This document shows, one piece after another, positions 15,004 to 29,578 of a stretch of DNA of 32,000 nucleotides. This DNA comes from Neisseria subflava. Its GTDB lineage: Bacteria > Pseudomonadota > Gammaproteobacteria > Burkholderiales > Neisseriaceae. The stretch spans positions 1,218,905 to 1,250,904 of the forward strand of contig NZ_CP039887.1 of the NCBI RefSeq assembly GCF_005221305.1, given 5' to 3'. The notes beneath the pieces are model-generated. The model was not told where the DNA came from. It saw only the letters and a program-made list of their open reading frames with translations, and ran no database searches. A program made the position numbers and the translations under genes. Numbering within the stretch: the stretch's first letter is position 1; each line of letters begins with the position of its first letter.

Positions 15004-15050
15004 AGGCCGTCTGATTCCCAACTAATTGCAGCCAACTTTTCAGACGGCCT
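15004..15050. repeat. Inverted DUS pair (AGGCCGTCTGA / TCAGACGGCCT) with a 25-nt loop between the DUF2169 gene and rhs-1
   Basis: The 11-bp arms lie at 15004-15014 and 15040-15050. The right arm contains an exact TTCAGACGGC. No U-tract follows, so a terminator function is doubtful. Confidence 0.6.
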
Positions 15051-15074
15051 CTATCTTCACAACAGGAGCACCCC

Positions 15075-15440
15075 ATGGCCGTCAATAAAATCGCCCGTAA
15101 AAGCAGCAAGTTCCGCGTTGTCTTTACCGTCCCCGATTTCTGTTGGCCGCCACCACCCGCTCCCCCTTCCGTTCCGCCCATTCCCTTCCCACTCTTTGCC
15201 GACCTCGGCGGTGCCCAAACCGTCGCCAAAGACGTACGCCTCAACCGCAAGCCTGCTTTTGTCTTTAAAGCCAGTAAGACGGACAAGACTTATGGCGATG
15301 AAATCGCCCTTCCGGGCCGTAAAGGGGTAAAGAGCCGCACCGCCACCAAACCGGCATGGCCTATGCGCCATTCTTCCTCGGTTAAAATCCGTAAACGCTA
15401 TATCGTGCGCACCGGCGATATGTTCCATATGAACGGCAAG
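15075..15440 (+). other. PAAR-like DUF4150 domain of rhs-1 (an identical copy lies at 19669-20034 in rhs-2)
   Basis: The segment FTVPDFCWPPPPAPPSVPPIPFPLFADLGGAQTVAKDVRLNRKP...YGDEIALPGRKGVKS...SSSVKIRKRYIVRTGDMFHMNG follows the DUF4150 pattern (PDxC.tP.....P.P.PN.a......t.V.i.g...GDE.G..GGv.S......a....gS..V...G....R..D....N). Confidence 0.8.
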
Positions 15441-17386
15441 TTCAGCAAAAGACTCCCCCCTAAAACCTGTCTGTCCTGTAAGGGTGCAGTGGGTGCCGGT
15501 CGGCCGGTGAATCCGATACACGGTTTGAAGTTTCTAACCGGTGAAACCGACTTTGCCTTTGAAGGCATTTTGCCGCTGGTATGGAGCCGCAGCTATTATT
15601 CCGACCAAGACGGTACCGGCTGGCTCGGCGAGGGTTGGAGCGTACCGGGCTGCCAACGCATCATCCGCGATGCGGCGGGATTGGCCTATATCGACGATCA
15701 AGGCCGTTTGTTCCCTTTGCCGGAAGTGGATGAAGATGATGAAGAACCGGTATTGTTCGAAAGCGAACAGATTTGGTTCAGTAAAAACCCGGACGGCCAT
15801 TATGTCATTGCGTCGCTGGACGGTTCGATAGCGTTGCGTTTTGCGCCTTTGGTGGTCGCTGAAGACGGTTCGGACGAAGATTCCACCCTCTTCCCTTTGG
15901 TCGCGGTAGAAGACGCCAACGGCAACCATCAGCGTTTCATTTATCATCCGCTGACCGGTCTGCCGCAATACATTATTGACGGCAACGGACGGGTATTCTC
16001 GCTGAACTTTGGCAATGTAGCCGATGAGCAATCGCCTAAAATGCGGCTGCTGTCGGTATCGCTGTTGGAGGGTTTGCCTGCCTTTGGCGAAGCGGTCCGG
16101 GTCGGCAGCCCGCTGGTTCGCTATGAATACAACGGCAGTGGTGACTTAGTCCGCGTTATCGGCCGCGACGGCAAGGTCAAACGCAGCTTCGGCTATAAGA
16201 ACAATCTGATGGTGTCGCACACCGATGCAGCCGGATTGGTATCGGAATACGAATACGACCATTACACCCCGACCGGCAAAGTGTTACGCAACCGGACTTC
16301 CTTGGGCGAGGAATGGCGTTTTACCTATCACGAAGGTTATACCGAGGTAACCGACGTATTGGGCCGTACCGAGCAATACCATTACGACTACAACAACGAG
16401 TTGACCAAACGGGTGTTTGCCGACGGCAGCACCAACCTGATGGAACGCGACGACTTGGGCCGTCTGCTCAGCCATACCGATGCAATGGGGCGCGTTACCC
16501 GTTATCAGTACAGCAACGAGGGCCAGGTGGAAAGCATTACCCGTCCGGACGGCGTCATCCTGCATTTCGACTATGACGACAACTACCGTCTGATCCGTAA
16601 AAGCGATGCCGAAAGCCGTTATCACGGCTATACCTACGACGAAGCGGGCAACCTGCTGACCCATACCGACCCGCTGAAACACATCACCCGTTTCGAATAT
16701 GCCGGCAACGGTCTGTTGCTGTCGGTGACCGATCCGAACGGCAGCAGTACCGCCTACCACTATAACGAAAACCATCAGCCCGACCGGATTACCGACTGCT
16801 CGGGTTACGAAACCAAACTCTCTTACACTCCCGAAGGACAGTTGGCGCGTATTACCGATGCGCTGGGACAGCATACCGAATACCACTACGACGCCAATCA
16901 AAACCTTACCCTTGCCCTCTATCCCGACGGCAGCAAAGAGACCTTCGGCTACGATGCCGCAGGTCGTTTAAAAACCCATACCGACGGCGAAGGCCATACC
17001 ACTTCCTACGAATACGGCCAAGACGGTCTGCCGACCCGGCGCACCAATGCGCTGGGCCATACCTTCGGCTACCACTACGACAAAGCCCGCCGCCTGGTCG
17101 GCCTCACCAATGAAAACGGTGCGCGCTACCGCTTTGCCTACGACGTCCTCGACCGATTGATTGCCGAAAGCGGCTTCGACCATAAACTGACCGGCTACCG
17201 CTATAATGCCGGTAACGAACTAATTGAACAGCGCGAATACGGCGATGATGCCACCCTTGCCGCCAAACTGATGGCGCAACTGGGCGGGCAACCCGTTGCT
17301 AAAAAAGATGCCGCCCCGCTTTCAGACGGCCTCGACAGCCAAACCCCGCTGCGGATTACCGAGTTCAAACGAGATGTATTGGGACG
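15075..17386 (+). repeat. Direct repeat copy 1 (2312 bp), apparently 100 percent identical to 19669-21980
   Basis: The first 770 codons of rhs-1 and rhs-2 are identical. Antisense ORF translations in the track are also identical (15534-16031 = 20128-20625; 16284-16901 = 20878-21495; 16968-17183 = 21562-21777). The first mismatch I see is at 17387 versus 21981. The offset is 4594 bp. Confidence 0.9.
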
Positions 17387-28977: not shown

Positions 28978-28981
28978 GGCC

Positions 28982-29246
28982 TTAATGCCATAACTCATAA
29001 TACCTGAAAAAGTTGTAATGCATAATCGGAATGGTTTAAGAGCAATTCCAGATGTGTCAGTTTCTCTTTTTAGTTTGCTCCAGTCATAATAATTCCCAAA
29101 ACAAACCGGAAGTTACCTTCACAGTTGGTCATTTCTCTTGAGATACCAATTCGGTCACAGAAGAGGTAGTGTATTTGTTGGCTGCTTTCTTATGCAGTTA
29201 TCTAATCGTGAATTTACACCCAAAGCTTGGCGCTTTGGGCATCTGA
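28982..29246 (-). pseudogene. Degenerate, AT-enriched rhs core-end remnant in inverted orientation
   Basis: Minus-strand translation gives ESSQQIHYLFCDRIGISREMTNCEGN (29189-29112), compared with EGESCQETHYFHCDQIGIPREMTDKDGN in rhs-1. It also gives HYNFFRYYE (29020-28994), compared with HYNFFRYYE. Stops and frameshifts lie in between. The upper boundary is uncertain. Confidence 0.65.
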
Positions 29247-29290
29247 AAAGCCAGAAAGAGAAGATGGTGCTGGAATAGAGGCAAGCCCTA

Positions 29291-29578
29291 ATGGGTCAAC
29301 CTATCTTTCCCAAAAAATTGGAGCCTAATTCACAAAACGACCCTCATATACCCGACAACCACCTTAAAGAATACAACGGCAGCAGCTATTACTACGACAG
29401 TTTCAGCAACCTGATCCACCGCAAACTGGCAAACGGCGAAGTACAAAACTACTTCTACGATTTGCATGACCAACTGGTTACGGTGAAGATCTTCAAAGAA
29501 GACGGCACGAAAGAAACTTGGACGTACAGCTACGACACCTTGGGCAGAAGAATAGGCAAAGGCCGTCTGAACAGCTAA
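29291..29578 (+). pseudogene. rhs: Short diverged rhs core remnant 5 (95 codons)
   Basis: The segment PDNHLKEYNGSSYYYDSFSNLIHRKLANGEVQNYFYDLHDQLVTVKIFKEDGTKETWTYSYDTLGRRIGKGRLN aligns to TDNRLKTYNGNSYYYDHFGNLIHRELADGEVQNYFYDLHDQLVKAEIFKKDG.KETW.Y.YDALGRRIGKGRLK of the other copies. It stops 2 codons after the in-frame DUS (29562-29571). Confidence 0.8.

Follow-up and report, generated by a model that had tools for sequence, protein, structure and literature searches.

The locus examined here lies in a 32,000-nucleotide stretch of Neisseria chromosome (referred to below as the window), in which a type VI secretion system (T6SS) is followed by a 14.6-kb array of rhs toxin genes at 15004-29571. 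The question it raises is why DNA uptake sequences (DUS) recur throughout this array. They could be a by-product of the Rhs peptides, ordinary chromosomal background, a purpose-built arrangement, or the residue of DNA exchange. We consider it likely that a process linked to transformation keeps a set of in-frame DUS slots filled in the rhs genes, and that interspecies exchange has left the array a mosaic of three DUS dialects.

Exact 10-mers of two kinds were counted on both strands: GCCGTCTGAA, the canonical DUS, and GTCGTCTGAA, in which GTC marks the core of the N. mucosa-type mucDUS. The array holds 10 of the former and 13 of the latter, 23 in all, and positions 1-15003 hold three; chance expectations per window are 0.05 and 0.03. 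The array also contains one DUS of the Eikenella dialect (eikDUS, GCTACCTGAA). All are exact 10-mers or belong to a described dialect with the CTG core (10 canonical, 13 mucDUS, 1 eikDUS). In their 12-mer form 17/23 are preceded by AG and 6/23 by GG, the latter prefix being forced by the tryptophan codon TGG at the slot designated E below. By sequence and placement the 23 motifs are genuine DUS and come in two kinds, in-frame slots and intergenic inverted pairs. The gene comP was absent from the window and its flanks.

Five in-frame sites multiplied by paralogy account for 17/23 motifs: A (PLSDGL) three times, B (LGRLK) four times, C (KGRLK) five times, D (EVSD[DG]L) twice and E (WGRLKE) three times. 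The other six comprise one duplicated upstream site and two intergenic inverted pairs (4 motifs), so that collapsing copies leaves ~8 independent loci. Slots A to E all fall within the final third of the region that encodes the Rhs shell, and the DUS excess is concentrated there. In the first full-length gene, rhs1, slot A is a canonical DUS at 17321-17330 (-), slot B (LGRLKR) a mucDUS core at 17851-17860 (+), slot C (KGRLKD) a canonical DUS at 18322-18331 (+), and slot E (WGRLKE) a mucDUS core at 18607-18616 (+). Slot D of rhs1, found by reading codons, is EVSGSL and carries the eikDUS at 18344-18353 (-), paired with the canonical DUS at C. This version of slot D is shared with Neisseria sp. 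CP9, N. elongata, N. sicca VK64 and Eikenella. In rhs2 the slots are A at 21915 (-, DUS), B at 22445 (+, muc), C at 23000 (+, DUS), D at 23022 (-, muc) and E at 23285 (+, DUS). The truncated fragment 3 has B at 24962, C at 25442 and E at 25757, all muc, and fragment 4 has A at 27412 (-, DUS), B at 27942 (+, DUS), C at 28413 (+, muc) and D at 28435 (-, DUS). The upstream site is an AG-DUS at 15039-15048 (-) before rhs1 and a mucDUS at its paralogue, 19632-19641 (-), before rhs2.

A preliminary description of this DNA, made by eye, had given about 23 motifs in the array and three in the T6SS core (615, 3195 and 5367), and both figures were exact. The frames and peptides it listed (LGRLKRQ, GKGRLK, GWGRLKEE, LSDGL) were also as described. 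It had further stated that the full DUS recurs at the same sites in all copies. Sites A to E do recur, with the exceptions that E is lost from fragment 4 and D is absent from fragment 3, and slot D does not hold the same dialect throughout, the eikDUS of rhs1 having been overlooked in that count. Recurrence among the copies is mostly paralogy.

If the motifs merely followed from the YD-repeat peptide consensus (..GRL..), as had been proposed for part of them, codon choice at random should restore them. Synonymous codons were shuffled within each gene 2000 times with the protein fixed. The expected and observed numbers were 0.35 and 4 for rhs1, 0.37 and 5 for rhs2, and 0.13 and 4 for fragment 4, and 0/2000 shuffles reached the observed number. 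The shuffles, which the preliminary description had proposed as a control, thus yield about one tenth of the observed count and do not reproduce the DUS density. Peptides compatible with a DUS were actually coded as DUS in 4/5 cases in rhs1 and 5/6 in rhs2. Four of the seven GRL tripeptides of rhs1 are followed by K, and from codon usage a GRLK would be coded as a DUS with a probability of ~0.09. The consensus does contribute something: Rhs proteins are richer in DUS-compatible peptides than T6SS proteins (shuffle expectation 0.085/kb against ~0-0.007/kb), and site B, together with an unrealised GRLK at aa 630, stands in the YD-repeat context D-x-x-G-R-L. Sites A, C, D and E stand outside it. 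Rhs genes of Pasteurellaceae do not have the motifs and lack the lysine and the codons, their sites reading IGRLEE, KVRSEN and WGKLNS with other codons. These results support the view that the in-frame DUS do not simply follow from the YD consensus, an explanation already refuted by the shuffles and by the codons read across species, and left with almost no chance of being right. The excess over shuffles is not peculiar to Rhs. The first housekeeping gene past the array, encoding an exonuclease, carried 2 DUS against 0.07 expected, which makes such an excess a general property of DUS.

The slots were then read across species. A scan with one genome per species yielded 70 loci, the codons at A to E were read in each homologous copy, and the dialect of each host was assigned from DUS outside rhs. 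At site A, hosts with the canonical DUS had TTCAGACGGC (PLSDGL) in 6/6 copies and the muc form in none. Hosts with mucDUS had TTCAGACGAC (PLSDDL) in 17/20 copies, the canonical form in none and no DUS in 3/20, a replacement of Gly by Asp that follows the dialect. At site B, GGT was used in 28/30 copies from muc hosts and GGC never, the other 2/30 having no DUS. Site D exists as EVSDGL (DUS), EVSDDL (muc), EVSGSL (the Eikenella dialect, Eikenella itself included) and EVSDRH (wadDUS). The codon preceding site B ends in A in 45/56 copies (TTA, CTA, GTA), which completes the AG-prefixed 12-mer; TTA and CTA together make up 9% of the leucine codons of rhs1. On these codon readings what is conserved is the nucleotide motif, and the protein yields to it. 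Because the protein changes to fit the dialect of its host, peptide constraint would not be what keeps the slots, and this switching of amino acids is a further argument against the YD consensus as their source.

Dialect is also where the array departs from its own genome. The array has 13 mucDUS and 10 canonical DUS, and the DUS outside rhs in this genome number 0 and 26, respectively (Fisher p=4.4e-6). A subflava-like genome has been reported to hold 155 mucDUS against 2964 canonical DUS, and mucDUS inside a non-muc genome have already been taken as a sign of interspecies transfer (PMC3630211). Judged by its motifs, the array is a mosaic of the AG-DUS of the host, mucDUS of the N. mucosa/sicca type and one DUS of the Eikenella type. 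The clearest case is cassette 3 (24776-27063), in which 7/7 motifs are muc, both arms of both border pairs included. Its stretch 25226-27150 is 96.2% identical over 1925 bp to the metagenomic contigs L093, L096 and L097 of a mucDUS-dialect Neisseria, whose housekeeping flanks (on the purM side) are all muc. The array therefore combines the two features of a foreign-dialect island, a local excess of a non-host motif and a close counterpart (96.2%) in hosts of the donor dialect. Cassette 3 was found at other loci in canonical-DUS hosts as well, and its candidate immunity protein of 101 aa is identical in 358 blocks of the collection, in hosts with the DUS, muc and kingDUS dialects. Mixing of dialects in rhs extends to other species. 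The rhs cores of N. wadsworthii contain 14 canonical DUS and 5 wadDUS, and rhs fragments of N. perflava carry muc motifs.

Copies with GTC could instead be variants of the host DUS that arose by local decay or wobble and were never imported. In favour of this, the dialects differ at slots B, C and E by a silent C/T transition, and the array itself has differing copies of one slot. Against it, two intergenic pairs have GTC in both arms, which would need coordinated double changes, and at slot D GTC turns Gly into Asp. Further, GTC occurs in 0/26 DUS outside rhs, and cassette 3 matches all-muc contigs at 96%. We regard local decay as very unlikely. The foreign dialects, the sharing of cassette 3 and the switches of C-terminus and tip among conspecific strains described below are direct evidence that cassettes move between species. 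They support transformation-driven cassette traffic; a purpose-built arrangement is not shown by them.

Two further settings of cassette 3 were noted. The identical 101-aa protein occurs as a lone gene at L100:659-964 and L102:1056-1361, where a mucDUS pair adjoins it and the flanks, of Kingella type with a guanine-plus-cytosine (GC) content of 0.55-0.6, contain ~20 kingDUS. On contig L095 (2821-12462) cassette 3 lies directly next to tail and baseplate genes of a Mu-like phage, and homology to the window stops inside the right-hand DUS pair, at 27059.

Density was compared at several scales. The array has 1.58 DUS/kb and the T6SS core 0.23/kb, and by this measure it is packed with DUS, as the preliminary description had put it. 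It is not packed when compared with the adjoining chromosome (29572-32000 of the window plus 9.35 kb downstream), which has 21 DUS in 11.8 kb (1.78/kb), all 21 canonical and none muc, or with other Neisseria flanks (78.8 kb, non-rhs and non-T6SS) at 1.61/kb. The adjoining 11.8 kb and the 79 kb of flanks have at least ~1 DUS/kb, the density of a genome-wide uptake signal with one dominant dialect per species. A subflava-type genome of ~2.3 Mb would, at the published counts, carry ~1.25/kb. These counts are 2871 for N. subflava NJ9703 and 2964 for a second subflava-type genome (PMC3630211). A background as dense as the array had been named in the preliminary description as an outcome that would refute its proposal, and such a background was found. 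The outlier is the DUS-poor T6SS cluster, not the array. The T6SS core is AT-rich (GC 0.33-0.45), entirely coding and without intergenic terminators, its only three DUS (615+, 3195+ and 5367-) each lie within a gene, and the whole cluster has 5 DUS in ~22 kb.

Coding DNA gives a different comparison. In the flanks most DUS are intergenic (5.3/kb), and open reading frames (ORFs) have 0.51 per kb of coding sequence. The rhs1 and rhs2 genes reach 0.96-1.15/kb, ~2x this coding baseline, and the 1.3-kb stretch from A to E reaches 3.9/kb with the eikDUS included. Rhs-homologous coding DNA pooled from 16 Neisseria loci has 191 DUS in 92.5 kb (2.06/kb), ~4x the baseline. The coding-DNA enrichment of rhs is real but modest, and the ~4x figure for the family carries the non-independence of its members.

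These figures might suggest that nothing special has happened, that an ordinary DUS background was inflated by duplication, and that the T6SS stands out solely for being a foreign island, AT-rich and packed with operons. The 17/23 motifs explained by paralogy, the match of 1.58/kb to backgrounds of 1.78 and 1.61/kb, the composition of the terminator-free T6SS core and the like excess of the exonuclease gene over shuffles all fit this explanation. It leaves unexplained the 4x excess over the coding baseline at 16 loci, the slots that persist across species with a switch of dialect, and the excess of foreign dialect. We think it improbable.

The reading we prefer, upkeep of the slots by a transformation-linked process together with interspecies exchange, would work as follows. 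Biased uptake and homologous replacement, with or without selection, would keep the slots occupied and rewrite them in the dialect of the host. Since oral Neisseriaceae have the Rhs cores in common and conserve them, these would be the homology arms at which incoming DNA recombines. The AT-rich, DUS-free cargo of tips and immunity genes would travel between the DUS-tagged arms, repeated interspecies exchange would produce the mosaic of three dialects, and intergenic inverted DUS pairs, terminator-like, would close the cassettes. DUS-receptor uptake as the driver is inferred in this scheme.

Several observations weigh against it. The overall density of the array is not above background, and a single gene exceeds the coding baseline weakly and not significantly (Poisson P ~0.07 for rhs2). 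Contingency counts overstate the evidence, since they include paralogues and related species that are not independent of one another. Between GCC and GTC, slots B, C and E differ by a silent GGC/GGT transition that could arise in place. The muc-dialect relatives are 90-96% identical and not near 100%, which means that the donors are unsampled or the transfers old; the direction of transfer is inferred. Finally, in N. elongata, an AG-DUS species, AG-mucDUS was only ~4% as efficient in transformation as the native dialect (PMC3630211); the foreign-dialect slots would accordingly be poor uptake tags in this host.

A stronger proposal is that the density and placement of DUS in the cores were selected for promoting uptake and replacement of toxin and immunity cassettes. 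The preliminary description had called the arrangement one that would favour replacement of toxin cassettes by transformation. The layout it was based on is there, conserved DUS-bearing cores bracketing DUS-free variable tips, and cassettes do appear to move between species. Passive accumulation of DUS wherever homologous DNA is repeatedly replaced by transformation would give this layout too. The variable tips and immunity ORFs of the window (3.77 kb, GC 0.31-0.42) contain no DUS, but 1.9 would be expected in 3.77 kb at the coding baseline, and the window alone was therefore rejected as a significant case. Weight is carried only by the multi-species data, in which ~23 kb between cores (N. wadsworthii, 83E34 and MVDL19) contain no DUS against ~3.7/kb in the cores. 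DUS are also concentrated in the core segment common to orphans, and C/D pairs often combine two dialects.

Truncated 5' ends of rhs fragments were mapped by chained tblastn at all loci, and DUS were counted within -40 to +25 nt of them. A DUS was near 56/177 ends, where 12.1 +/- 3.2 would be near random positions (4.6x). Orphans sit just past the terminator pair of the previous cassette, so part of this excess is trivial, and we make no claim that DUS cause junctions. Several hotspots of 5' ends (aa ~1150-1160) have no DUS. Selection for placement is weakened further by passive drive, which predicts the same pattern, since conserved recombining DNA gains DUS and non-homologous AT-rich tips cannot. 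The overall density equals background, and the inter-core DNA of mucDUS species does hold DUS. On balance we find a purpose-built arrangement rather unlikely, although it stands above the remaining alternatives, and we retain upkeep of slots by transformation with exchange between species as the better explanation.

Turnover at the locus was examined in 500-bp windows against conspecific strains, taken as those with an identical DUF2169 protein. Divergence in the T6SS core was 0-0.6% in most windows, with blocks to ~3% in strains that also covered rhs1. In the rhs1 core it was 2.6-7.6%, climbing to 10-17% near the 3' end. Two strains depart from the window within the core, one at 18085, where its C-terminus becomes a different one, and one at 18717, where its tip changes. 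Some junctions coincide with DUS: the 3-kb duplication of rhs1 and rhs2 begins 3 nt before 15039/19632 (left edge at 15036), and the break between 94% and 85% identity of rhs2 and fragment 3 lies inside slot D. The edges of blastn high-scoring segment pairs were tried as a test for tract ends and rejected, as they peaked at DUS (19620-19649 and 23010-23039) but also at indel positions without DUS. In Eikenella (L065, L069 and L074, ~9974-10033) a perfect neisserial inverted pair, TTTCAGACGGCCTC-12 nt-GAGGCCGTCTGAAA, was noted in a genome of the eikDUS dialect. Its right arm is slot C of an rhs fragment that begins at the pair, the neighbouring slot D is an eikDUS, and the pair looks like a DUS-to-DUS junction.

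The inverted pairs raise the possibility that the main role of the motifs is transcriptional, with intergenic pairs acting as terminators or attenuators and a C/D hairpin attenuating rhs expression. The left border of cassette 3 is a mucDUS pair at 24776-24801 with a 13-14-bp stem (-13.2 kcal/mol), and the right border one at 27025-27063 with a 16-17-bp stem (-18.3 kcal/mol) and a T-run; both are terminator-like. A third pair, at 31357/31376, stands directly 3' of the exonuclease gene. All three match a terminator pattern (24773-24804, 27025-27063 and 31355-31387), with folding energies of -13 to -18 kcal/mol for the intergenic pairs. Within the ORF, slots C and D are likewise inverted with respect to each other and give a 12-bp in-frame hairpin in rhs2. 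The folding energy of this C/D pair is -9 to -11 kcal/mol in rhs2 and in fragment 4. It has no T-run, and in rhs1 it is disrupted and does not fold. Slots A, B and E, which stand singly in frame, could not act as terminators, and a terminator role would be compatible with a role in uptake. A mainly transcriptional function is thus quite unlikely.

The motifs resemble the DUS dialects of the Neisseriaceae (Frye et al. 2013, PMC3630211; Berry et al. 2013, PMC3868556) in their 10-mers with the CTG core, their mostly AG prefix, the single dominant chromosomal dialect and the inverted pairs at gene ends. They differ in that three dialects occur within 14.6 kb and that one in-frame slot is found in four dialects across hosts with its residues altered. 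A term search of PMC3630211 found no such description. Foreign-dialect islands are known from the folP fragment of N. subflava ATCC 19243 (PMC3630211) and from the detection of integrative and conjugative elements by dialect (PMC7371117). Like the array, they are places in an AG-DUS genome where mucDUS are in excess and the sequence matches a mucDUS species. Here, instead of one imported block, a fine mosaic is found in a multicopy toxin family, and it recurs in many species.

The T6SS-B of commensal Neisseria, in the layout described for N. subflava (Calder & Snyder 2023, PMC10210955), runs tssJKLM-vgrG-DUF2169-rhs (PAAR-like) as it does here, with another rhs gene beyond the opposite end of the cluster. 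DUSvar1 and DUSvar2 have already been noted within and near the N. subflava vgrG effector clusters, with the suggestion that DUS aid sharing among commensals (PMC10210955). That remark was qualitative and concerned T6SS-A vgrG clusters; the slots, the shuffle test, the comparison with background and the tracking of dialects come from the present analysis.

With C-terminal displacement in Rhs proteins the locus shares a GC-rich core, AT-rich tips past DPxGL, downstream orphans truncated at the 5' end, and tip swaps between strains with breakpoints in the core. Displacement and orphan cassettes of rhs C-termini with immunity genes were reportedly described by Jackson in 2009 and Koskiniemi in 2014, and the exchange in enterobacteria is said to be intragenomic or due to unspecified horizontal gene transfer. 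The cores here bear the uptake signals of the species itself, which makes natural transformation a named route. Uptake sequences in coding DNA are known to shape peptides (Findlay & Redfield 2009, as cited in 10.1101/2025.10.24.684340). Preferred frames, tolerant positions and an accumulation explicable without selection are common to coding uptake sequences and the slots. Molecular drive of uptake sequences was reportedly treated by Maughan and Redfield in 2010. The slots differ in outlasting changes of dialect, a natural experiment on the same residues.

Two long-running questions are whether selection or uptake-biased drive maintains DUS and to what extent the dialects hinder gene flow. The Rhs cores offer a compact natural experiment on them, with five codon-level sites, up to four dialects and a protein altered to fit. 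The mixed dialects show that the toxin and immunity repertoires of oral commensals are pooled across species. Such pooling bears on the spread of T6SS weaponry and of resistance to it in the mouth and nasopharynx, a habitat shared with N. meningitidis.

The window matches chromosome CP133462.1 (GCA_031190635.1, 2.2 Mb) exactly, which places the locus on the chromosome. A plasmid origin of the T6SS, as in N. cinerea, whose T6SS was reportedly described by Custodio et al. in 2021, was rejected, as megablast of 1-15000 against PLSDB gave 0 matches. Among species representatives, N. perflava and Neisseria sp. 27098_8_112 come closest. The host is a commensal Neisseria of the AG-DUS dialect and of the subflava/perflava group, the species name resting on these nearest relatives.

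The 3' two-thirds of a T6SS-B core cluster occupies 1-14994 (+), with tssF (3' end), tssG, clpV, tssJ, tssK, tssL-OmpA, tssM, vgrG (11568-13841, +) and the DUF2169 chaperone/adaptor (13858-14994, +) identified by Pfam. The rhs array follows vgrG and the adaptor, the location of a T6SS-delivered Rhs. It consists of two full-length rhs genes and three 5'-truncated orphans, with a small unannotated ORF, a candidate immunity gene, behind each of the first three tips; none was found behind fragment 4. The cores have a GC content of 50-57% and the tips 31-42%. The Rhs toxin architecture is evident from PF13665, PF20148, PF05593 and PF03527 and from DPIGL at nt 18750, 23428 and 25900.

The rhs1 gene (15075-19220, +) encodes, by Pfam, a full-length protein with PAAR-like, DUF6531, RHS-repeat and RHS-core regions, and a tip of 151 aa past the DPIGL at 18750. 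The tip (18765-19220) contains the motif GNWCGPDW...CRQHDICY, which resembles the CxxHDxCY of phospholipase A2, and had sub-threshold matches to Pfam phospholipase A2 families (E 0.005 and 0.018). It is probably a phospholipase A2-like toxin. Candidate immunity ORF 1 (19111-19527, +), a mechanical ORF call, overlaps the rhs1 stop and had 0 Pfam matches. The second full-length gene, rhs2 (19669-24006, +, Pfam, DPIGL at 23428), is 99% identical to rhs1 over 3.05 kb (3053 bp), and the fragments are 85-93% identical to both. It is followed by candidate immunity ORF 2 (24020-24676, +, 218 aa, 0 Pfam matches).

Orphan fragment 3 (24851-26379, +, ORF 24997-26379) was recognized by homology and Pfam and comprises the core from ~aa 890, DPIGL at 25900 and a tip. 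Behind it lies candidate immunity ORF 3 (26601-26906, +), the 101-aa protein identical across the collection. Orphan fragment 4 (27096-28837, +, also listed as 27143-28837) comprises the core from ~aa 640 and ends in …HYNFFRYCSIGCQSIT*. With DPxGL missing and slot E now WGKLKS, it looks like a decaying cassette. Fragment 5 (29352-29571, +) is a 220-bp remnant whose core homology ends exactly on the last base of a slot-C DUS (29562-29571). The truncated fragments 3, 4 and 5 and the small ORFs at 24020-24676 and 26601-26906 have the form of orphan cassettes. The exonuclease gene past the array (29959-31350, +) belongs to the RNase_T family by Pfam, and its two DUS are at 30425 (-) and 30822 (+). 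A further rhs gene stands on the far side of the T6SS cluster. In a related strain (L085:1-4111, -) this gene carries 6 mucDUS and no canonical DUS, and the part seen in this genome (L009:1-1869, -) carries 1 muc motif.

The 70-locus scan also turned up the end of this Rhs core, 130-480 residues at 74-90% aa identity, in Streptococcus, Rothia aeria, Gemella and Eikenella. The carriers in Streptococcus were sp. HJ1 (a complete chromosome), oralis, timonensis (twice) and infantis, and the Rothia aeria carrier was a complete genome. The Gram-positive loci (L039, L056, L071, L072, L077-L079 and L081 in Streptococcus/Streptococcaceae, L046 in Rothia aeria, L073 in Gemella) are arrays of orphan fragments, 9 to ~35 kb long, and none of them contained a full-length rhs gene. 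The S. timonensis array begins directly after zwf, Streptococcus sp. HJ1 and an unclassified Streptococcaceae isolate share a chromosomal array site, and the Rothia array holds a PAAR-like/DUF6531 fragment. Neisserial DUS and mucDUS are present in the arrays, often with one base decayed, against no more than one or two in the flanks. Over 0.5-1.5 kb, tip and immunity regions included, the arrays are 94-98.5% identical in nucleotide sequence to Neisseria loci. Rhs fragments of Neisseria have, almost certainly, been transferred into Gram-positive bacteria, to judge from these matches. A literature search found no prior report of Neisseria rhs arrays in Gram-positive oral bacteria.

The small ORFs downstream in these arrays are intact (95-97% aa identity), but with little time since transfer intact ORFs prove little about protection. 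Delivery of an Rhs nuclease into Gram-positive cells by a T6SS has been reported for Acidovorax, as cited in PMC13375697. It is possible, though doubtful, that cassettes circulate as DUS-bounded modules across the dialects of Neisseria, Eikenella and Kingella and across the Gram divide, and that the Gram-positive arrays are acquired immunity islands against the Neisseria T6SS; their defensive function is speculative. As provenance tags, neisserial DUS expose recent transfer of T6SS cassettes into Streptococcus, Rothia, Gemella, Eikenella and Kingella, and make targeting of Gram-positive neighbours by the Neisseria T6SS directly testable. This side finding may matter more than the array itself.

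Two minor observations remain. Short contigs (0.4-3.8 kb; L026, L047, L051, L060, L064 and L080) in assemblies of S. mitis, N. lactamica and N. meningitidis carry rhs fragments of the mucDUS type, which may be contamination from commensal Neisseria. At the tssL/tssM junction a 500-bp block (7358-7857) diverges by 2.4-3.2% in most conspecific strains and looks like a small recombination import.

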